A stretch of 64,000 nucleotides of DNA, taken from contig OX597840.1 of assembly GCA_951406725.2 (NCBI GenBank), positions 32,178,001-32,242,000 of the forward strand. The letters are read 5' to 3'. Shown here piece by piece: positions 2,737 to 64,000 of this stretch. The stretch's first letter is position 1, and each line of letters starts with the position of its first letter. Made by a program: the position numbers and the translations under genes. The stretch comes from Octopus vulgaris (lineage: Eukaryota). Under the pieces are notes generated by a model. It was not told where the DNA came from. It did not search any database and worked only from the letters and a program-made list of their open reading frames with translations.

Positions 2737-3563
2737 TCTACAGACACGGCTCGAGAAACACGGGGCCGACCTGCCCGAGATGCGGTCAGAGCGACGAAAC
2801 CGTTCTGCACGCACTCGTGCAGTGTCCAACAATTTCCGACCTGTGGGCTTATGTCGAACAACTGCTGTCACGTGTGGGACGAGTCGGTTTATCAGCTGAG
2901 TCTATCGTCAATATTGTCACGCCTCCCTCCTTCAAACGGGAAGGAAGAGCTATTTTCATCATCCTTGTGGCTATGGCGAAAGAATGTATCTGGTGGACGC
3001 GTTTGAAAGGATTGGAGACAAACACTTTCCTCTCTGGTCAATCTCTCATCAACTTCTTCAAGTACCACTTCAAAAGGAAAGTGAGAGTAGAGAGGCAAGT
3101 TTTGTCTAGCGAATGTTTTAAAAAAAGATGGGTGAATGTAGCAAGAATGGCACGTATGAATGACGAAGCCACCTTGAGCATGATCCTATGAACCCAGAAA
3201 TTGAAAACAGAGAGTTGCTTATTCGCAAAAAAAAAAAAAAAAAGAAATATAACATGTGACTCCATTGACCGAGGTTACCGTGGTCTTTTCCGTAGGCTTT
3301 TCTTTCCACGGGTAAACCTCACCTGTCCTCCCCTTTACACTTCATATTGACATTTCTGTGATAACGATCCCTATTGATCAATTTTTTTTTCCTCTCCCCC
3401 TTTTTTTTAACCCCCTTTTTTTTGTCCTCTTTCTCTCCTTTTACGATCCCTTTTGATCGAAACTCCCCCTTCCTTTTTTTTTTTTTTTAAACCTTCAAAA
3501 GAAAAGCTCTACCTTGTAACTTGTCCCATCTGTGTGCAGCCCTGTGTGGCCAATAAAGAAACT
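2737..3563 (+). mobile_element. 5'-truncated Tx1 copy 2 inserted in the (TCTA)n tract after copy 1
   Basis: ORF 2817-3191 matches the C-terminus of copy 1 ORF2; same 3' terminal motif; TCTA tracts on both sides. Confidence 0.92.
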
Positions 3564-3584
3564 TATCTATCTATCTATCCATCC

Positions 3585-5865: not shown

Positions 5866-6199
5866 ACTCTTTTACTCTTTTACTTGTTTCAGTCATTTGA
5901 CTGCGGCCATGCTGGAGCACCGCCTTTAGTCGAGCAAATCGACCCCGGGACTTATTCTTTTGTAAGCCCAGTACTTATTCTATCGGTCTCTTTTGCCGAA
6001 CCGCTAAGTGACGGCGACGTAAACACACCAGCATCGGTTGTCAAGCAATGTTAGGGGGACAAACACAGACACACAAACACACACATACATATACATATAT
6101 ACGACAGGCTTCTTTCAGTTTCCGTCTACCAAATCCACTCACAAGGTGCCACGCAGTGGGACTGAACCCGGAACCATGAGGTTGGTAAACAAGCTACTT
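5866..6199 (-). mobile_element. SINE A, body; head split off by the 6200-8350 insertion
   Basis: consensus stops at ..AAGCTACTT (6199) and resumes at 8351. Confidence 0.9.
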
Positions 6200-8350
6200 T
6201 ATTTCAACAATTTTGCCACTAGGGCAGTACACAGAGTAGCTGCGGGCTGGACAAAGACATTAATGGATGATGGTGGTGGTGGATGAAGATGGTGATGGGA
6301 GAAGTCAAAAAGCGCCCGCCGACTTCCGCTTCTCTAAGACATTGTTCTTTTTTTCAATAAGTTCAATTTTCTTTTTTCTTTAGTTTCAATAAATCGACAT
6401 GAGGTTGCAAACCTCTTACACGAAGGAGGCACTAAAACCTCTTACAAAGTTCTTTTTTTCATTTCTTTTGCCACAAGGGCAGTATATGAATTCACAAAAA
6501 TTCTCCCTGTCAGGTCCCCGAAGCAAATTGTCTTGCCGCCTGCAGACAACTCTGCGACGACAAGTCGAGGGCCTGCAAAGAGAAAAGTAAAATGTTTCCT
6601 CTCAAAGGCCTTTGTGACCCTTGACAAAATGTTTTCCGTTACTACCTCCGCAGCAACCCGCGGAGGCCATAACGGACTCCTTGAGCTGACCGTGTCCTTG
6701 CGTTCTCGGTCACCTAAGCCATTCAAAAACTTTTCCACCTTCCCTCCCTTGTGGTAAAGGAGGAGAAACAACTCCTCTTCACAGGAAGGGACCTCACACT
6801 GATCCGTCAGTGGCACACTTTCCACTGACGGAGCACTGTCCGCGGGTGGCACACGTCCCACCCGCGGCTCCGTCGGCGACACAGAAACATCAGCCGTCCG
6901 ACCTCTTTTTCTTTTTTTCCTCTTTTTTTTAGAGGCCGCTAGCCCGGGGTCTCCTTCGACGGACACGGGGAGGTCGCTATCCTCCTCCTCCGTCTGTACG
7001 TTTTTTGGTGAGCAACCATTGTTGCTCACCTGTCTTTTTCTTTTCGTGGATGCAACCTCCTCCACGACTTCCACCGTCTCCCCCTCCAGTGAGGGGGCAG
7101 CGGGCACCTTTTCCTTTTCATGCTCCGGGGCAGCACCACGGCCACCGGGACACTTCCTCTTGATATGTCCAGGCTCCAGGCACAGGTGACACTTGGGGGG
7201 CGTCCCTCAAGCATCACCGGATACCTGTACCCGGCCATCCTCAAAAAGTCCGGTAAAACCAGACTTTTGGCTGACTGGGTCCATAGGGTCAAAACAGCTC
7301 TTGACCCCTCCCAATCAGCCGCAGGCTGTACTTTTACGTTCAGTAGCTTGGAACTGCTACCATCCAAGCCCCGGCGGATAGAGTCCTCTATCCACTCGGG
7401 CTCAACGCCTGGTGGTAAGCCGCAGATCCAAGCTCTCAACAATTTTTCTCCCTTGTAATTTGGGAGAAACAATATTTGTTTGCCCTCAATGGGCTGGCTT
7501 GCAAATTCGCAAGCTGCTTTAGGGGAGTCAAATAGCAACCAAACCGTTGCGTATTTAACTCCCCGTGCGATATATTTAACGGCTGGCATGTAGTCTGCCA
7601 GCTCGTTAACAATAGTGGCCTTTGGAAAGACTGCTATGGTGTCGAGCGACTTCGAATATGTCCTCAGCACCACGGTCCTTTCCTCGAGCTCATTCAAATA
7701 TTTTTGGGAGGTGTCAAATCCCACACAGTGAATTTCTTTGCCATAACGTAAGATTTAAAAACAGTTCAAAATGTGATAAAATAAAATAAGACACAGAAAG
7801 GAGAATGAAAAATACAACAGAAGGGAAGAAATAAAATTAGAAATAGCAGTTCAAAAAAAGTTATTTTTTAAAAAAATAAATTATAGACGGAGAAAGAGAG
7901 TTCAAATCCAGACAAAGGAATTAATTTTTTCTTTTTTCTTTTTGTTTTCACTTTTTTCGGCCAAAAAATTGTATTCCAGGCCAAATGCACAGTTGGTAAA
8001 ACACCTTGATAAAATAATCCTTGGTACTCCTTGGTAATTCCCGTGGATAACACAAAGACAATTTCAAAAACAATTTTTGCAGACGGACTACGCCGCTTTA
8101 AAAATACAATTCTCACTGCAAAGTGAGTCTTTACACTCGACAACAGGCAGAAAAATTATATCTGGAGCAAAGTGGAGTTTATTATCTGCTAAAAAATATT
8201 TAATGCTAAAAAACATTAAATGCAAGCAATAGACTTCCAAAATAGACTTCGCTCCCAAAAATGCAAAACGCCTACCTGTAGTCGAGTCAAAAGTTCAATA
8301 TTTCACGTTAACACGTGACATTTGCCGGAGCAAAAAAAACACGTCTGTCT
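6200..8350 (-). mobile_element. ORF1-only (HAL1-like) non-autonomous non-LTR retroelement, apparently full length (~2.15 kb)
   Basis: 5' end AGACAGACGTGTTTTTTTTGCTCC, ~600-bp 5'UTR, gag-like ORF1, ~240-bp 3'UTR ending AATAAA, degenerate ~16-bp TSD (6184-6199 / 8351-8365); no RT or endonuclease ORF. Confidence 0.82.
6442..7744 (-). pseudogene. gag-like ORF1 with CCHC zinc knuckle, two homopolymer frameshifts (~7700, ~7197)
   Basis: ATG at 7744; shifting frame in the G run at 7195-7200 gives EGRPP-KCHLCLEPGHIKRKC (CX2CX4HX4C), continuing into ORF 6442-7107 with basic KKKRKKRKR tract. Confidence 0.82.
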
Positions 8351-8386
8351 GGTAAGAAGCTATTTACCACACAGCCACTCCTGCGC
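8351..8386 (-). mobile_element. remaining 5' head of the split SINE A
   Basis: GGTAAGAAGCTATTTACCACACAGCCACTCCTGCGC matches the SINE A head. Confidence 0.88.
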
Positions 8387-8570
8387 TATTGATTCTTAAT
8401 TTTTTTAAAGAATTTTTATGTTTGAAATTTGTTCGCTGAGACCGACGTAATATAGAATAAATCGACTGAAGTCGAAGTCTGCTTTTTCATCTATTTTCTT
8501 TAAAAGTAAAAAACGCGACATGGAATGGAAAACGAAGTGACTCGAAACAACGGAGCATCATGTGGATGAC

Positions 8571-8734
8571 ACATGTGGCTGTATAATAAGAAGCTTGCTT
8601 CCCAACCACATGGTTCCGGGTTCAATCTCATTGCGTGACACCTTGCGCGTGTGTCTTCTAGTATAGCCTCGGGCCGACCAAAGCCTTGTGGTGGATTTGG
8701 TAGGAGGAAACTGAAAGCAGCCCGTCGTATATAT

Positions 8735-8769
<35 letters not shown>

Positions 8770-8962
8770 TGTGTGTGTGTGTGCGTGTGTGTGTGTGTGT
8801 ATTTGTATTCTCTGATTGTCCCCCCCACCTTGACAACCGATGTTGGTGTGTATACGTCCCCGTAACTTAGCGGTTCGGAAAATAAGATCGAATTGTTCGA
8901 CTAAAAGCGGTGTTCCAACATGGCTACAGTCAGATGGTTTAAACACGTAAAACAATAAAAGA
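8571..8962 (+). mobile_element. SINE A, diverged copy
   Basis: alignment by eye to other copies. Confidence 0.85.
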
Positions 8963-9113
8963 CTCTATATATATATATATATATATATATACATACACAT
9001 ATAAAATATAAGTTTGAGATAAAACCACTATTATGCAACTCAAACAGTGATAGACATAAACCAATAATTTAAATTTTTCCCTGTAAGTTTGATGTTATAC
9101 TCCCTAATATTAT

Positions 9114-9144
<31 letters not shown>

Positions 9145-9256
9145 TAATCTGGTGGTAATCACAAAAAGTGCTCCTTTAGTAGAGAGGGCTACGATTAGCA
9201 TAGTAAACGAAAACAAAGGAGTGTAATGTGTAGTCCGTTTGCAGTTGATATGCAGT

Positions 9257-9644
9257 GATGGAAGCACTCCGTCGGTTACGACGATGAGGGTTCCGTTTGA
9301 TCCGAATCAACGGAACAGCCTGCTCGTGAAATTAACGTGTAAGTGGCTGAGCACTCCACAGACACGTGCATCCTTAACGTAGTTCTCGGGGATATTCAGC
9401 GTGACATAGAGAGTGACAAGGCCGGCCCCTTGAAATACAGGTACGACAGAAACAGGAAGTAAGAGTGAGAGAAAGTTGTGGTGAAATAGTACAGCAGGGA
9501 TCACCACCATCCCCTGCCGGAGCCTCGTGGAGCTTTTAGGTGTTTTCGCTCAATAAACACTCACAACGCCCGGTCTGGGAATCGAAACCGCGATCTTATG
9601 ACCGCGAGTCCGCTGCCCTAACCACTGGGCCATTGCGCCTCCAC
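9257..9644 (-). mobile_element. tRNA-derived SINE family B with 11-bp TSD
   Basis: head GGAGGCGCAATGGCCCAGTGGTTAGGGC..GGTTTCGATTCC; TSD TGATATGCAGT at 9246-9256 and 9645-9655. Confidence 0.93.
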
Positions 9645-23550: not shown

Positions 23551-23866
23551 CATCCATCTATCTATCTATCCGCTCAGTCGAAGTCGACTCTCGGTCACTC
23601 GTTGGATCAGTGTCCTCCATCCAGTTCTATCCTGGGCCACTTCTTTCAGATTGGCTATGGCGATTCCCGTGTCACTCTTGATGGTGTCAAGCAAGCGGGT
23701 TCTTGGTCGGCCTCTTCCTCTCTTGCCACTGACCATTCCAAGCATGATGTCCTTCTCCAGGGATTTTCTCCGCATAATATGACCAAAATATGCCATTCTA
23801 TGCTTGGTGATCCTAGCTTCTAGTGACAGTTTCAGCTTGATCTGGTTAAGAACTTCTCCATTGGTA
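23551..23866 (-). mobile_element. RTE (BovB-like) LINE 3' end with (GATA)n tail
   Basis: TNGEVL..MAYFGHIMRRKSLEKDIMLGMVSGKRGRGRPRTR..W. Confidence 0.9.
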
Positions 23867-26800
23867 AACGTCTCGTCCTTTACTTTTAGTGGGGGATTGG
23901 AATGCCACCCTGGACACGCATCTAGACTACGTGGGCAGAGATAGCAATAGAAGGGGATGCAAATGCCTCAAAGACCTGCTCAGACGTTTCCAACTGTCTG
24001 ACAGGTACCAACTGGACCACCCGAATGTGCCAATGTGGACATGGAGTAACCGCATCGGGTCGTCCAGATCATACTTAGATAGAGTATTCTGTAGGACAAT
24101 AGATAAAAATAGTGTAGGTTGTCCACAATTTCATATAGTCAGTTACACAGATCACAAGTTTGTGACTTGTACACTTGACTTAGATAAGACACATAGGCAG
24201 GGTCCTGGTTACTGGAAACTGAACGCGTCTTTTACAGCACGACAGGTCTACAGGGACCGGATCAGCACATTAGTTAAGAGAGCTTTGACGGGTACCATCA
24301 TCAACAACAGATGGTGGTATACCCTAAAAAAAGCAATTAAAGCAGAATCAGTCAGATACAGTAAAGCCCTAGCATTAGACGGAAATAGAATAGAGGGAGA
24401 ATTAGTTAAGGTTTTAGAAGAGGCACTTAGAACTGGCATCGCGTCCAACGCGCTGGCGGCGAGATTGGCCCTCGACCAACACCTCAACGCCAAACACGAG
24501 GGATGCGTTGTCAGAGCTAGGATGCGTGCTCTGAGGAACGAAGGAGTTGGAGCCGCCCAAGACGCCCGAGTGGTGGAGACGCAACGAGGCAACAGAGCCA
24601 CCATCAAGTCTCTTATAGATGAACAGAGGCGCGAATTTCTCGAGCCTAAAAGGATGTGTGGGGCTTTTCAGCAACACTTCACCCAACTGTTTGGGACAAG
24701 TGGTGGGTCAGAACGCAGAGTGGATTTTAGTGCCTACCTGCATGCCTTGTCACGACTCTCAGCAAGAGAGGTGGAGTCTTGTGAAAGGCCTATCACAGCT
24801 GCGGACGTACAGGATGCGATGGTAGGCTGCGCGAGAGACAAGTCACCAGGCTTGGATGGTCTGCCCTACGAACTTTATTTTCATATGCCAGACTTGTTTG
24901 GAGGCGTCTTGGCAGCTGTCTACTGCAACTGGCAGCAGAACGGGAGTATTCCTGCTTTTGTAAAGCGAGGAGCAGTGGCACTGATTAAGAAAGACCCAAA
25001 CAAGGGGGACGTCATAGATAATTTCAGGCCCATCACTCTGCTCAACGTAGATTTGAAAATTTTGACCAAGGTGTTAGCCGAGAGGTTGGCGCTTGTCATC
25101 AAGAAACTAATCGACAAGGCGCAAACATGCGCCGTGCCGGGTAGAAGTATTCATGACAACCTCCATCTGATGCGCTACATCATAGACAGGGTAGTTAAGA
25201 ATCCCGGCATGGGTGGGGCGCTGATCAATTTGGATCAATCAAAAGCTTTCGATGGGTAGATCATCACTGCTTGGAGGCTGTCCTTAAAGCGGCTGGTTTC
25301 GGTCCAGTTTTCCGCGGTTGGATCGCTGCCTTATACAGCGGCATCCGCTCAGTAGTTCGCGTAAATGGTCATCTATCCAGACCTTTTAACATCATGCGTT
25401 CGGTTCGTCAGGGATGCCCCCTCTCATCGCTGCTGTATGTATTGACTCTTGAGCCACTACTGCGGAAACTGGCGACGCTGAGGGGCATCCCACGAGAGCT
25501 GGGATGCGGGAGGAGCGTGTCTGCATACGCAGATGACGTCACCGTCATAGTGTCGAGCTACGAGCACATCGAGCTGGTCGGCGAGACACTAAAAGAATAC
25601 GAAGCGGTAACGGGAGCAAAAATTAACCGGGAAAAGTCAGTGGGCTTGCGGCTCGGCACCTGGAGAAGCAGGCCCATGCCGTCCAACAGCGTCTCCATCG
25701 TGGGACGCTGGACGGACGGACCGGTTAAATTGCTCGGGGTCTGGTTCGGTCCGGACCTCCAAATGGAGAAGAACTGGGGCGAGATAACGACTAGGGTGGC
25801 TACTCTCACCCAGAAATGGGTTGAGAGAAAGCTATCCCTAAAAGGTCTGGCGGAGGTGGCGAACGCGTACATCGCATCCATCATCGAGTATCGTCTGACC
25901 GTCGTGCCTTGTCCTTACCATCACCAAATTGGAACGTATACTCTTCCGCTTCCTGTGGAAGGGAAACGTTCGGATGGTTAGGCGATCCATTTGCTGTCAA
26001 CACTCGCTAAATGGAGGGCTGGGCATGCCGTGGTTGATGATGCGCAGACATGCGCTGAGACTGCGACATCTCCGGCGCTTCATAGACGACGGTGAACAGG
26101 TGTGGTCGCCTTTTGTGCGGCGCGCTTTCCCGCAGCTCGTTTCCTTGGACGAACTACAGTCACGGATCAAGCAGAGACCGAGGCTAGGCGAATGGCACCG
26201 CGAGTGTCGCGTTGCTCTCAAGCAAATCTGCCGTCCGGGATCGAACATGTGCGACTCCATCACAACAAAGGCATTCTATAGTGGATTAGTGGAGGGGAGG
26301 TACAACGACGAACTCGGGCAGAGTCTGGGCGTCGACGAGGAACACCTGACCCGCCTGTTCAGGACAACTTTCGGGCCGGGACCTATGAACAATCACCAAA
26401 GATCCCTGGCCTGGCAGTGCTATTGAGAAGCATTACCTGTTCGGGATAAGCTCTACAGACACGGTTCCAGATACACTGGACCGACTTGCCCGAGATGCGG
26501 TCAGAGCGACGAAACCGTTCTGCACGCACTCGTGCAATGTCCAACCATTTCAGACCTGTGGGCTTATGCCGAACGGCTGCTGTCACGTGTGGGACGAATC
26601 CGCCTATCGGCCGAGTCTATCGTGGGTATTGCTCCGCCCCCTTCCCTCAACCGGGAAGGCAAGGCAGTTTTCATCGTATTGGTGGCCATGGTGAAAGAAT
26701 GTGTGTGGTGGACCCGAGCGAAAGTATTAGAGACAAACACTTACCTCTCTGGCCAATCGCTCATCAACTTTTTCAAGTACCACTTGAAAAGGAAGGTGAG

Positions 26801-27215
26801 AATGGAGAGGGAAGTTTTGTCTCGCGAAAGATTCAAAGAACGATGGGTGAATGTTGCAAAGATGGTGCGTGCTAGTAACGAAACCATTTTGAGCATGATC
26901 CTGTAGATCGTAAAAAAAGAAAGAAAGAGAGCATTTTGATCTCATGTGGTTATTTCCTCCCTGACTGGGGTTCCCGTGGTCTTTTCTGTAGGCTTTTCTT
27001 CCCACGGATGAACCCAATCTTGTTATATCAATGTTTATATCATTATTTCTGTGATACACGATTTCCTTTTTTTTTCCTTTTTTTCCCTCCTCTCGATCCC
27101 TTTTGATCGCAATCTTACATTTATTTTATTTTTTTTCCACCCTTGAAAAGAAAAGCTCTGCATTTGTATTTGTCCCCTCTGTATTCAGCCCTGTGTGGCT
27201 AATAAAAGAAAGTTA
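23867..27215 (+). mobile_element. Tx1 copy 3: partial APE endonuclease, RT and 3'UTR, several frameshifts
   Basis: LVGDWNA, SYLDRV and YTDHK APE motifs; YADD; same 3' end as copies 1 and 2; ORFs 23889-25259, 25271-25981, 25929-26426, 26532-26906. Confidence 0.95.
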
Positions 27216-34772: not shown

Positions 34773-35425
34773 ATTATTTTGTTTGTTTCAGTGATTTGAC
34801 TGAGGCCATGCCGAAGCACCGTCTTTAGTCGAAGAAATCGACCTCAGGTCTCATTCCTTGTAAGCCTAGTACGTATCCTATCGCTCTCTTTTGCCGAACT
34901 GTTAAGTTACGGGGAGGTAAACACACCAACATCGGTTGTCAAGCGATGGTGGGAGTGGGACAAACACACACACGCACACGCGCACACACACACACATACA
35001 CATATATGTGGAGGCGCGTGGCTTAGTGGTTAGGGTGCCAGCATCATGATCGTAAGATTGTGGTTTCGACTCCTGGACCGGGCGACGCGTTATGTTCTTG
35101 AGCAAAACACTTCATTTCACGTTGCTCCAGTCCACTCAGCTGGCAAAAATAAGTAACGCTGCGATGGACTGGCGTCCCATCAAGCTGGGGAACACATACA
35201 CCATGGAAACCGGGAAACCCGGCCCATGAGCCTGGTTAGGCTTTAAAAGGGCGCATTTATTTATTATTATTATATATATATATATACGACGGGCTTCTTT
35301 CAGTTTCCGTCTAAAAATCCACTCACAAGGCTTTGGTCGGCCCGAAGCTATTGTAGAAGACATTTGCCAAAGGTGCCACGAAGTGGGACTGAGCCCGAAA
35401 CCATGTGGTTGGTAAACAAGCTACT
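34773..35425 (-). mobile_element. SINE A split by SINE E and truncated at the HAL1-like target site
   Basis: 3' half 34773-34966, 5' half 35285-35425 ending at AAGCTACTT. Confidence 0.82.
35009..35258 (+). mobile_element. tRNA-derived SINE family E
   Basis: A box TGGCTTAGTGG, B box GGTTTCGACTCC, CORE-like centre, tail shared with family F. Confidence 0.82.
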
Positions 35426-35570
35426 TTATTTCATACAATTTGCGACAGGGGCATGACATGGAGTAGCTGCGAGCTGGACGATTACTTTAACGGGATTAAA
35501 TAAATATAAAATATAAATGAGGGAAACGAACGGCGCCCGCCGACCGCCTGTCTCCCTAAGACAATGTTCT
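35426..35570 (-). mobile_element. 5'-truncated 3' end of the HAL1-like family
   Basis: colinear motifs GTCTTAG..GTCGGCGGGCGC..GTCCAG-N-CGCAGCTACTC..TGAAATAAAG shared with 6200-6350. Confidence 0.8.
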
Positions 35571-35648: not shown

Positions 35649-36010
35649 CTATCTAGCTATCTAGCTATCTGTCTGTCTATATATCTATAATATAGATAAT
35701 ATATATGTATGCATATATACATACTTGTACATACATACATGTATACAAATATGTATGTATGTATGTATATATATATATATATAATTAATCAATATAGGGT
35801 GGCAAAAAAAATTTTTGTAGAATTCTTTTGCCACCAGCGGCCTAGTAGGAAAAAATTAAATAGTCATAAACTATTTTTACGTTCAACATCACAATCAAGG
35901 AACGGCCATAATAGGCCATTCACCCACTAGAAATAACAGCCAAAAGCTTTAACCGCAAAATAACATTAATTCCATAAACCAGGAGAAAATTGAAAAACTT
36001 TTACCCTGTA

Positions 36011-36117
36011 ATTTCTTAGACGATGCACCGTTTCATCTACCGTTTAATGGTAAACTAACCTGATTAAATTAAATCAAGCCAATCCACCATAGGCCCTTAG
36101 ACTCATCAGTAAGAAAT
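36011..36117 (-). ncRNA. type I hammerhead ribozyme, copy 1
   Basis: reverse complement of 36878-36984. Confidence 0.82.
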
Positions 36118-36503
36118 AGCCAAGTCGGAACAGATATTTTTTACGAGGCATTCCTCTTGCTACCTCGGCAATATCTGACCTAAAATTTTCAAATCGTCGC
36201 ACTCGCGCCAAATTTATCGGCAGCAAATAAATATAAGCCACCGATTCCATTACGGAACTAACCAGAAAATTCATAATTAATCAATATAGGGTGGCAAAAA
36301 AAAATTTTTGTAGAATTCTTTTGCCACCAGCGGCCTAGTAGGAAAAAATTAAATAGTCATAAACTATTTTTACGTTCAACATCACAATCAAGGAACGGCC
36401 ATAATAGGCCATTCACCCACTAGAAATAACAGCCAAAAGCTTTAACCGCAAAATAACATTAATTCCATAAACCAGGAGAAAATTGAAAAACTTTTACCCT
36501 GTA

Positions 36504-36610
36504 ATTTCTTAGACGATGCACCGTTTCATCTACCGTTTAATGGTAAACTAACCTGATTAAATTAAATCAAGCCAATCCACCATAGGCCCTTAGACTCATC
36601 AGTAAGAAAT
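36504..36610 (-). ncRNA. type I hammerhead ribozyme, copy 2
   Basis: reverse complement of 36878-36984. Confidence 0.82.
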
Positions 36611-58537: not shown

Positions 58538-59830
58538 TTTTCCTTCGTAACACAGTGTAGGTAAAAGTGCACTGGAGTCTTTAATCATCTCTCAAGTCAC
58601 AACAAGGTCTTCAGACATATAATACTTCCCTTAAGATGTGTGCTGTGCCCAATAAGGCTGCTTTTTGAAAGACATCAATCTTGCATGGGATTTCCAGTTG
58701 CCTGAAGAATTCTTCAAGTTTCAATGGGATTGAGTCCAACGCTCCGATCACGATTGGTATCACTTTTACATTACCCTCTGGCATTTCATACAGTCTTGCC
58801 ATTTCTACTCTCAATTCGGAGCACTTTGTGATTTCTTTCAACCTCTTTACTCACAACATTCATGTCATTTGGTATGGCTACATCAATGATATGACAGTAT
58901 TTGTCTCTCTTATTCAATATGACAATATCCTGCAGGCGCTGTTCAATTACACGATCCGTCTGAAAATCATAGTCCCAGAATATCGTTATTTTCCATCCTC
59001 CTGCATAACTTTACTTGGTACGTGTTCATACCGGTTCCACATTCTGCTGATTTCTATTTCATATTGGTATTTACGACAATACTTCATATTGGTATTTACG
59101 GCATAAAAGCCAATGAAGATACACACACACTTTATTATAGTGGTGCTTGTATTCTCTTTGTACAAGGCTCTCACATCCACTTACCAAGTGGGTCACATTT
59201 TCCACACTCTTTCCACAGAGTTGGCATTTCTGGGTGTCAGAATTTTATAGATGTTATACTTCACTGACTTGGTAGTGAGTGCCTGGTCTTGTGCAGCAAT
59301 GATCAGGCTTTTGGTGGAACGCCTCAAATCACTTCGCTCAAGCCATGCCCAGGATGCTGTATAATCCTTAACGTCCTGTGTATTCCTTTCAAACTGTCCA
59401 TGAATTCTCATTTCAAGAAGGTCTTCTTTTCTCTTCTCCTCAGCTCTTTGGTTAAACTCTTCCTTGCTCATCATTTCCTCTGCATTTACACCCATATCTT
59501 TCACGGCATATTGCAGCAGATTTTCATCCCTGTTTATCAAATACTCAGGAAGCATTCTCCTTTCACTCCTTGCACAATGCTCTATACTAATTAGTACTCT
59601 TCTACCATTCTTTCTTTTCATATACAGTCTGTTGTTTACGTTTGCTTTAGGGTGTAATACCCCATGCAGCGTCATCGACTTTCTCTTCAGGGTTGATATT
59701 TCCTCCTTAGTCCATTTGAAGATGCACGCACTATATCTGACCACTGAAAATGCCCAGATATTCATTGCGGTAATCAAATGTCTTGCATTCAGGTTGAATT
59801 TCAACACCACCTTCACCCCTTTTTGATACG
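58538..59830 (-). mobile_element. R4/Dong-clade LINE no.4, degenerate RT C-terminus, zinc finger and restriction-like endonuclease
   Basis: LHPKANVNNRLYMKRKNGRR, IIAAQDQAL, VIPIVIGALD..QKAALLGTAHILR. Confidence 0.88.
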
Positions 59831-60811
59831 CCTAAAATTTTCCAGGGTGAGCTGAGCTCTGTTGAATGATAATTAGGTTATAGGATAAGTTGTGATGGAG
59901 GGATGTAGATAATTGTTATTTCTTAAATACGGGGCTGCCTTAGAATCCAAATAAAGCCCAAAACAGCTAAATGCAAGGATACATCTAACACTTTCTACCT
60001 ACCTACATTCTTTTGTGAACCTTTAAAAAACAACTCCATGACCCGAAGCTGATACACCTAAATAGACACACCTATTTACAAAGTTCTACATAGATGAATA
60101 TATTCTGAACAATAACAGAAGCCAAAATTTGATCGATGAAAGTTTACTACAACACCTCTCCAGCACAACTTACCCCACAACTTAATAATTCAACAGAGCC
60201 CAGTACACCCTCGAAAGTTTTACTTAACAAAGCAAAGATCAACTCATATGTATCACGCACTGATGATGACTTAGCTTGCCAAAACTTCGAAGATATTGTC
60301 AAAACTATTCTTGAGAAAAAATGATGCGTACGTGTGTGTTACAAAATTGATCGAAAAAAGAGTTTTAATGAAACGGAAAGGAAATCTTCTTTACCCAAAT
60401 AAATAAATAAAGAAAGAAATAAATCATCACATTTGATGACGAACAAGATACATTAGTTTCCACACAGTAAAAACCAGACAACAATACTTTGGAAAAGTAG
60501 GTGTTAAATCAAAATCTGATATTCAAAGAAGCAATGCTTACAAGAATCTTTTTTTTTTTTGTGGGGGTGTATTTGTGTGTGTAATATTTGTTTGTTATTT
60601 TCGTTTGCGTTTTCTGTAGCGAAATTGTTTTCTTCATACTTTTTTTATTCTCTTATTCCAACATTCGGTTTGCCATTCAATAAATTGAATGATTACGAGA
60701 CACGAACTTATTTCCTGTAAAAAGCCCAACCAAAGATTTGATGGTTTTTCCTACTTAAAGACGTTTGATTGTTTTTATTCTTTGAAACGTAGATAAAACT
60801 AAAGTTGACCA

Positions 60812-62446: not shown

Positions 62447-62852
62447 TTTATCATCATTATTACTATTATTATTATTATTATTATCATTATTATTATTATT
62501 ATAATTATAATAATAATTATTATTATTATTGTTATTATTATTATTATTATTACCTTTAGCCAGCACACAGGATCCCGAATGGCATCCGCAGATAGCTGTG
62601 GAGGTCATAACGTTGCCCGTGTTGCGTACGCTACAGGTCCTCAACAAGGAATATATTTTGTCGCCGGGCGACGCCGACACAGCACACACCTTGTGCTTGA
62701 ATGAGGCGTGGGTGATGGCGGAGGATGGGGGTCACACCCGATGCTGGGGAGGAATATGGATAAGAGGTTGAAACGCCTCAGTGTTATTGAAAGTTCCTAG
62801 TTTGGAAAAAAAATGGTAAGAGGCTTAGCGCCTCATATTTTTTTATTGAATA

Positions 62853-63236
62853 CTAGCAGTATCGCCCGGCGTTGCTCGGGTTTGTAAGGGAAATAACTAT
62901 AAAGCATTTTTAGAGAGTTATAGCCAAAAATTAGCAAAAAGATGGGGAAAAAATTATGGTAATTTTTTTTGAGAGTTAAAAATTTCGCATTGCGTCCCCT
63001 AGACAGTCTGTGGTTTGTGTTTCTGATTCTCGACCCCATGTCGAATTTATCGATTTTTTTTCAGAACTGGGGGAACTTTTCAAAATTTTCGCTGCGTTAG
63101 TTTTGAATTATGACATTGGGCTGTATGTGTGTCAAGTTTCATCAGAATCGGTTGAAAGCCGTGGTCAGGGTGAGGGTACAACCTAACAGACACACAGACA
63201 CACACACAGACAAACTGCCGTTTATATAGAGAGAGA
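62853..63236 (-). mobile_element. non-autonomous Helitron
   Basis: 5' TCTCTCTCTATATAAA, 3' hairpin plus CTAG, A/T target. Confidence 0.85.
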
Positions 63237-63409
63237 TTGTGAACAGTGTTATAGGTTTGTTGCCTCATGAATAATATAAGAGATCAATGTTCTCGGGAAA
63301 GAACGACCGGCAGGCGTCGCTTTTCCTCCCATTAATCATCATTTTCATTTTTCATTTCATATAACTTTATGTCTGTGTCCAGTCCGCAGCTTCCTATCTC
63401 TATGTGGAC

Positions 63410-63794
63410 GGAAGCACTCCGTCGGTTACCACGACGAGGGTTCCGGTTGATCCGAATCAACGGAACAGCCTGCTCGTGAAATCAACGTGTAAGTGGCTGA
63501 GCACTCCACAGACACGTGTACCCTTAACGTAGTTCTCGGGGATATTCAGCGTGACACAGAGAGTGACAAGGCCGGCCCTTTGAAATACAGGTACAACAGA
63601 AACAGGAAGTAAGAGTGAGAGAAAGTTGTGGTGAAAGAGTACAGCAGGGATCACCACCATCCCCTGCCGGAGCATGGTGGAGCTTTAGGTGTTTTCGCTC
63701 AATAAACACTCACAACGCCCGGTCTGGGAATCGAAACCGCGATTCTACGACCGCGAGACCGCTGCCCTAACCACTGGGCCATTGCGCCTCCACA
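63410..63794 (-). mobile_element. SINE B with TSD TATCTCTATGT
   Basis: duplication at 63395-63405 and 63795-63805. Confidence 0.92.
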
Positions 63795-63834
63795 TATCTC
63801 TATGTAAGGCCTTTATGGATGATATAATGAAATA

Positions 63835-63990
63835 AAGAAGCTCGTTTCCCAACCTTCCAACCACATGGCTCCGGGTTCAGTCCCACTGTGTGACATCTTG
63901 GGTAAGTGTCTTCTACAACAGTCTCGGGTCGACCAAGACCTTGTGAGTGGATTTTGGTCAACGGAAACTGAAAGATGCCCGTCGTATACA
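63835..63990 (+). mobile_element. SINE A beginning at the HAL1-like target site, diverged
   Basis: AAGAAGCTCGTTTCCCAAC..CCACATGGCTCCGGGTTCAGTCCC; A box absent. Confidence 0.85.
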
Positions 63991-64000
63991 CACACGCGTG

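Follow-up and report, generated by a model that had tools for sequence, protein, structure and literature searches.

Results

Organisation of the locus

The window analysed here is a 64,000-nucleotide stretch of the Octopus vulgaris genome (assembly GCA_951406725.2, contig OX597840.1, positions 32,178,001 to 32,242,000, forward strand). Near its right-hand end, once a Helitron and a SINE B are excised, positions 62553-63834 are the 3' quarter of a 2.0-2.3 kb retrotransposon that carries ORF1 only and belongs to subfamily B. Further copies of the same family lie elsewhere in the window, and the relevant features are as follows.

62553..62763, plus strand: 3' end of ORF1, subfamily B, with the family stop TAA at 62761-62763
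62764..62779, plus strand: GAGG-n-CCTC hairpin 1, directly 3' of the family stop
62820..62834, plus strand: GAGG-n-CCTC hairpin 2
62853..63236, minus strand: non-autonomous Helitron of 384 bp with TC...CTAG ends, inserted at AT
63237..63405, plus strand: middle part of the 3' UTR
63252..63266, plus strand: hairpin 3, left arm mutated (TAGG) in the window copy and perfect in the B consensus
63388..63393, plus strand: tail motif AGCTTC, the complement of the GAAGCT target variant that subfamily B uses
63406..63794, minus strand: SINE B, flanked by an 11-bp duplication (63395-63405 / 63795-63805)
63806..63834, plus strand: 3' terminus, with the terminal 4-bp hairpin at 63808-63820 (degenerate here) and the TGAAATA end
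63835..64000, plus strand: 3' target duplication (AAGAAGC variant), then the remainder of an older-variant SINE A that continues beyond the window end
6200..8350, minus strand: full-length young copy, subfamily A1, with a 5' UTR of ~600 bp and ORF1 from 7744 to the family stop at 6512-6510
6401-6444, minus strand: two hairpins of the A1 copy, before the tail
8351..8386, minus strand: 5' portion of the split SINE A head, containing the 5' target copy (8365-8351); the 3' counterpart of that target copy lies at 6199-6184
35407..35560, minus strand: second window copy, reduced to a short stretch of the family's 3' end and located at the SINE A site used by the others

A sequence-only reading of this DNA had proposed that removing the two insertions restores an ORF end homologous to the C-terminus at 6442-7107. 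This is borne out by the alignment of the excised 62553-63860 with the minus strand of 6180-6780, which scored 98 against a mean of 25 and a maximum of 36 in 200 shuffles. The excised copy diverges by 7.0% from a consensus of 20 B copies that were themselves chosen for likeness to it (mean of those copies, 7.1%). Subfamily B is the older subfamily, and its window copy is a dead, decayed 3' fragment and ordinary debris. An extra G near 62730 shifts its frame, it lacks the 5' three quarters of the element as well as the 5' target duplication, and it is preceded by an (ATT)n tract. Beside the 62553 copy the window does not contain the portion of B elements that lies further upstream, and therefore the 5' part of this copy has been truncated or deleted.

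The boundaries originally given for the Helitron proved exact, with the TC...CTAG ends lying between A and T in 11 of 12 fetched loci, the window copy included. The element displays the features of its class (5' TC, 3' CTRR with a subterminal hairpin, insertion between A and T without duplication), the site is empty in 19 of 29 subfamily-B copies, and at least 40 other matches have 95-96% identity. The insertion of SINE B is likewise supported by an empty site in 28 of 29 B copies, with the left edge moving to 63406, 4 bp left of the 63410 first assigned; this SINE is young, with 95-97% identity to six other window copies. The identities of both insertions are consistent with their arrival after the element. 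The locus had been described as triple-nested, and three layers are indeed present, but they do not form a chain of three nestings, as the Helitron and SINE B are neighbours within the element. Nor is the element joined to the head of SINE A, as had been supposed; it is inserted within SINE A, and the duplicated target and the SINE remainder follow from 63835. A short CCAACC duplication is found at 63845-63860, just 3' of the 3' target copy.

An ORF1-only family

Searches covered the 2.8 Gb genome (227 contigs), with only the best 40-101 candidates scored. With 62553-62852 as the query, 40 matches were obtained in the best 40 of 781 candidates, and 6200-7800 yielded 52 pieces from the best 40 of 2774. 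The element consists of a 5' UTR, a single ORF of ~400-430 aa and a 3' UTR of ~200-310 nt; open ORF1 frames of 400-430 aa occur in many matches, and intact A-type frames stop ~285-310 nt before the 3' end. The lack of ORF2 is a family trait, as had been suggested, with 30 of 30 ORF1 protein matches reaching the 3' target junction without ORF2 similarity over distances of 173-662 bp (30 fetched ORF1 loci, overlapping the earlier loci). No ORF2 match occurred among 45 units delimited by target motifs on both sides (mostly 2.0-2.3 kb), at least three of which were mis-bounded and hence uninformative. The ORF1 end placed at 6442 in the window A copy is the product of a frameshift, a one-base insertion near 6568-6570; intact A copies use a stop codon equivalent to 6512-6510, and contigs of four public runs (RNA or DNA origin) hold family relatives without the extra base. 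The 5' UTRs of seven loci (L012, L022, L023, L025-L027 and L030) contain one to three tandem units of ~220-260 bp, resembling promoter monomers.

ORF1 is ordered as an RRM-like region, a CCHC knuckle, a basic linker and a C-terminal block. The protein resembles CCHC and ZCCHC3-type clusters, and the label "RRM-like" is a putative one that draws on this resemblance. Pfam zf-CCHC was matched at E=0.0013, below the curated cut-off; a PDB sequence search returned weak knuckle matches only, the phage collection gave no match, and AlphaFold2 run on a six-sequence alignment was unusable (pLDDT 33). The sole protein-database homolog is an Octopus sinensis protein with 58% identity.

Purifying selection, anticipated for ORF1, was found in the RRM-like region and is weak in the C-terminal block on which the sequence-only reading had relied. 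Across 170-171 codons of this N-terminal region in six subfamily consensuses, dN/dS (Nei-Gojobori throughout) is 0.13-0.21, and every one of the 15 pairs reaches p<1e-10. For the C-terminal block, dN/dS is 0.43-0.62 between deep lineages (p<0.05 in 4/9 pairs) and 0.8-1.2 within A, where changes are few. Subfamilies A1-A4 differ at dS 0.47-0.70 in the N-terminal region versus 0.02-0.11 in the C-terminal block, and their tails (L001-L027) are nearly identical, like the C-terminal halves. This pattern suggests module exchange, which may have occurred by recombination or template switching between subfamilies.

A fixed target within SINE A

The principal claim of the sequence-only reading, an ORF1-to-3' UTR architecture supported by this divergent copy, stands, though site-specific insertion in SINE A and a full-length partner LINE had been overlooked. 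The 3' end of the element meets the SINE between GGT and AAG(T/A)AGC with a target duplication of 7-17 bp; A loci show the AAG(T/A)AGC junction in 29 of 30 cases and B loci in 26 of 29. Genome-wide, exact junction patterns number 476 for the T variant and 70 for the A variant (reversed-pattern controls, 0), and the unsplit SINE head pattern of the T variant, representing empty sites, has 59,332 exact matches. The 5' half of the split SINE was recovered in 11 of 20 extended B loci, lying 2040-2215 bp upstream in the nine with both ends matched. In nine picked loci, mostly 5'-truncated or short, the duplications of 7-17 bp all begin at the same base, and at L146 a locus-specific variant is present on both sides of the insertion. 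Target duplication, a fixed 3' end and 5' truncation show that the family spread by retrotransposition. The head of SINE A bears what we take to be A- and B-box-like motifs, judged by eye against the consensus; ARAGORN and Rfam returned no match within the window.

Each duplication restores an intact target, and copies are stacked in head-to-tail order. Immediately downstream of 30 ORF1 loci lies another element in 20 and the SINE remainder in nine, with one unclear case, so that stacking (20/30) far exceeds the ~1% site occupancy, and arrays hold up to six junctions. At the 5' junctions of full-length copies such as L001, L004, L101 and L142, the 5' target copy has a right half that matches the element family and not the local SINE, as if the RNA started in target-like sequence and annealed during second-strand priming. 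Locus L065 (G000:C1:39262076-39265105) holds a 106-bp insertion in which the 5' end of an element is fused to the element's final 45 bases and flanked by a complete target duplication; it amounts to a bipartite derivative of minimal size. At L176, a truncated copy of 50 bp has its 5' junction on the AGCT common to target and tail motif. Upstream of the 35407-35560 fragment, a block of ~480 bp is repeated head to tail at 35790-36600.

A candidate helper and other occupants of the site

Loci L101-L103 contain an element of 5.45 kb whose ORF1 encodes 467 aa and whose ORF2 comprises endonuclease, RT and zinc motif; each copy of the element has breaks. All 40 scored matches are 99-100% identical, and this LINE is thus young; a split SINE head was found in 22 of 23 examined loci. 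Because it inserts at the same base and has the same terminal hairpin as the ORF1-only elements, it is likely their helper, and it is from this common site and tail that mobilisation in trans is inferred. The best solved-structure matches of its endonuclease are L1 ORF2p. Two ORFs, an AP-like L1-group endonuclease, RT, a C-terminal zinc motif and target specificity are all features of the Tx1 clade, and the helper appears to be of L1/Tx1 type, with target specificity and domain order favouring Tx1 over another placement in the L1 group. The helper ORF1 had no homolog in the protein-database search. It is 26-29% identical to the ORF1 of the element (E about 1e-18 to 1e-23), and because of this low identity the element is not a recent deletion derivative. 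A direct autonomous parent was not found among the best 40-101 candidates per genome search.

Other elements also use the site. Upstream of the first 30 T-variant junctions are lineage-1 ORF1 (16), ORF2 (8) or no match (6); upstream of the first 30 A-variant junctions are lineage-1 ORF1 (13), ORF2 (3), a second ORF1 type (2) or no match (12). Three older ORF2-bearing copies occupy the B-type target, all 5'-truncated and without a comparable ORF1. Two additional ORF1-only lineages were located.

L093; L091 from oriented 5976; L212, L213: second and third ORF1-only lineages, same SINE site

Lineage 2 (L093 oriented 7793-9315; G000:C10:101177000-101186900, minus strand) spans 1.5 kb, with an open ORF1 of 408 aa that is 39% identical to that of the helper, and it has a helper-like tail without GAGG hairpins. 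The ORF1 of the third lineage is 31% identical to that of the helper.

Related L1/Tx1-type LINEs with (TATC)n ends and a similar terminal hairpin occur in the window at 1-2640, 2740-3570 and 23868-27200, two of them stacked in tandem. Those at 1-2640 and 23868-27200 were considered as the helper and rejected, as they end in a microsatellite and not in the SINE. Decayed fragments of other LINE-like ORFs lie at 58540-59830 and 23566-23870 (both minus strand), the latter adjoining and capping the 5'-truncated LINE at 23868; Pfam gave no match for 59196-59831.

RNA hairpins of the tail

The terminal 4-bp hairpin is common to helper and passengers, with 94.7% of 209 cells paired across 53 distinct tails and 17 cells changed on both sides, mainly from U-A to G-C. 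None of 500 shuffles reached the observed pairing and slid controls were 13-53% paired, although the copies are related, and their lack of independence weakens every shuffle control and inflates this test.

Conservation of the GAGG-n-CCTC hairpins was confirmed, with one to three in each of 77 of 92 distinct lineage-1 tails. In the window B copy, those at 62764-62779 and 62820-62834 are perfect, and the third, at 63252-63266, has its intact form in the B consensus. Only in B does hairpin 1 adjoin the stop; the hairpins of A lie ~65-110 nt after it. Of 127 hairpins, 108 have U-G, U-A or C-G as their fifth pair, and consensus UTRs contain one to three hairpins versus 0.004-0.024 expected. Folding is no better than in shuffles (z -0.7 to -1.6), and no compensatory change was seen in the four core pairs, which the search pattern itself fixed. 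It is possible that GAGG is a sequence motif without structure. None of the 14 helper or lineage-2 tails, several of them interrupted, has the hairpins. A role as the helper-recognition signal was rejected on these grounds, and because the helper has no such hairpins, ORF2p probably recognises some other feature. A longer AAGG...CCTT stem is predicted after the helper ORF2 stop (z about +0.6); it might be distantly equivalent to the GAGG hairpins. Separately, the flank of the GTAAGAGG hairpin resembles the target.

Tail motif and target variant

The tail motif covaries with the target variant. T-type targets were accompanied by AGCTAC in 19 of 19 scored tails and A-type targets by AGCTTC in 11 tails and AGCTAC in six (Fisher p=2e-5, with copies not independent), and 24 of 60 tails had neither motif. 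Among DNA-selected sets, AGCTAC occurs in 23 of 29 A tails and AGCTTC in 22 of 26 B tails. The window B copy fits this pairing, with AGCTTC at 63388-63393 and an A-variant target at 63835, and the switch is seen in both the helper (9 vs 1 copy) and the ORF1-only lineage.

One explanation is that the motif pairs with the top strand of the target, or with read-through target RNA, and so helps to fix the insertion site. The change of motif with target variant in both helper and ORF1-only lineage speaks for such RNA-assisted targeting, as do predicted read-through folds in which the motif pairs with the duplicated target over 6 and 10 bp (z -0.8 and -2.0). On the other hand, 6 of 17 combinations are mismatched (one of them, L176, a junction artefact), C and lineage 2 use the site without the exact motif, and in the other target-specific APE LINEs described in PMC4494074 and PMC7265360 it is the endonuclease that sets the site. 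On balance, we regard a role of pairing in site choice as rather doubtful. A broader scheme is less likely still: the LINE and its ORF1-only parasites would read the target through a bottom-strand tail motif of 6-10 nt that pairs with the SINE top strand and frees the nicked primer strand, the motif would have been re-tuned in separate lineages, and the tandem GAGG hairpins would be operators for the parasite's ORF1p in a SINE-hosted, helper-dependent community.

Discussion

Origin and mobilisation of the element

We conclude with considerable confidence that the locus preserves the decayed 3' end of a non-LTR retrotransposon that has ORF1 alone, exists in many copies and inserts at one fixed base of SINE A, with a full-length L1/Tx1-type LINE found at that base as its likely source of copying in trans. 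Mobilisation may proceed through packaging of the RNA in cis by the element's own ORF1p, after which the helper ORF2p would recognise the common terminal hairpin and the TGAAATA end, the helper endonuclease would nick the SINE at this base, and the copy would be inserted by target-primed reverse transcription. The lineage-specific GAGG hairpins would most likely act in cis, either in ORF1p binding or in RNA stability after the stop codon. The window B copy would later have been struck by the Helitron and SINE B and have lost its 5' part.

The subfamilies could instead be recent, separate deletion derivatives of an autonomous LINE, with the selection on ORF1 having accrued in autonomous parents. 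HAL1 arose repeatedly in mammals (PMC5753468), at least two ORF1 types exist at the octopus site, the second being nearer to the helper (39%) with a helper-like tail, and with only the best 40-101 candidates scored rare parents could be missed. Yet all six lineage-1 subfamilies, separated by dS of up to about 1.2, are without ORF2 and have a common 3' UTR that is absent from the helper, and ORF2 was found in 0 of 30 ORF1 loci; such an origin is therefore improbable. Movement of the element and SINE A as one composite, with the head as promoter, the body as tail and a junction inherited from one ancestral event, agrees with the SINE head 5' and SINE body 3' of nearly all full-length copies and with a 5' target copy that is often family-typed, unlike the 3' copy (L001, L004, L101), but is largely refuted and very improbable because 5'-truncated copies of 50-1651 bp carry their own duplications at the same base, while the helper and lineages 1, 2 and 3 occupy that base stacked with single target units between them, and an RNA that starts within target-like sequence would account for the family-typed 5' copy.

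Relation to known systems

Non-autonomous LINEs in which ORF1 is present include HeT-A (Jockey), HAL1 (L1 clade) and Ag-Sponge (CR1) (PMC5786205), with HAL1 further described in PMC5753468. Like these, the octopus element has one ORF1-type protein, no ORF2 and a LINE-like 3' end, and comprises several lineages in which ORF1 is kept under selection. Unlike them, it has an L1/Tx1-type helper, a strict single-base SINE target, insertions without a poly(A) tail, and lineage-specific GAGG hairpins. It works like HAL1 but is not HAL1 proper, a mammalian L1 derivative, given its CCHC-type ORF1 and sole database homolog in Octopus sinensis.

Targets reported for the Tx1 clade comprise Tx1D for Tx1, U2 for Keno, microsatellites for Kibi and Koshi, and Mariner-N4_AMi for Tx1-Mar with its passenger SINEU-3 (PMC4494074); Mutsu inserts in 5S rDNA with subfamilies matched to 5S variants (PMC5340908) and Dewa in tRNA spacers (PMC3706591). 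The octopus system is similar in its endonuclease-RT LINE, fixed multicopy target, tandem insertion and non-autonomous passengers at the same target and, as in Mutsu, its subfamilies are matched to target variants. It differs in that its target is a putatively tRNA-like SINE head, SINEs not being among the Tx1 targets listed in PMC4494074, and in that its passengers are protein-coding ORF1-only elements and not SINEs. ZfL2 and UnaL2 of the L2 clade have stringent-type 3' stem-loops that were tested experimentally (PMC4176376). The octopus system likewise has a short terminal stem-loop common to helper and passenger with compensatory changes, although here the stem-loop is known from comparative evidence alone.

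L1-Tx1 families of Octopus vulgaris are given as counts without target analysis in PMC13282606, and the supplement or library deposited with that work may hold these consensus sequences. Within the freely searchable full-text literature, no SINE-targeting ORF1-only element was found. What is new in the family is that it unites two known habits, HAL1-like ORF1-only parasitism and Tx1-like targeting.

Significance

The window copy itself contributes only a dated nesting layer. For genome annotation, these elements split SINE copies and get called uncharacterised host genes. The system as a whole joins ORF1-only parasitism to Tx1-like site specificity and uses an abundant SINE as its landing pad, of which some 59,000 exact sites stand empty and 476 are occupied. 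Because the helper is young (99-100% identity) and many passengers have open ORF1 frames, the system lends itself to asking why non-autonomous elements retain ORF1p, which features a helper ORF2p recognises in trans, and whether pairing between RNA and target shapes the choice of site.
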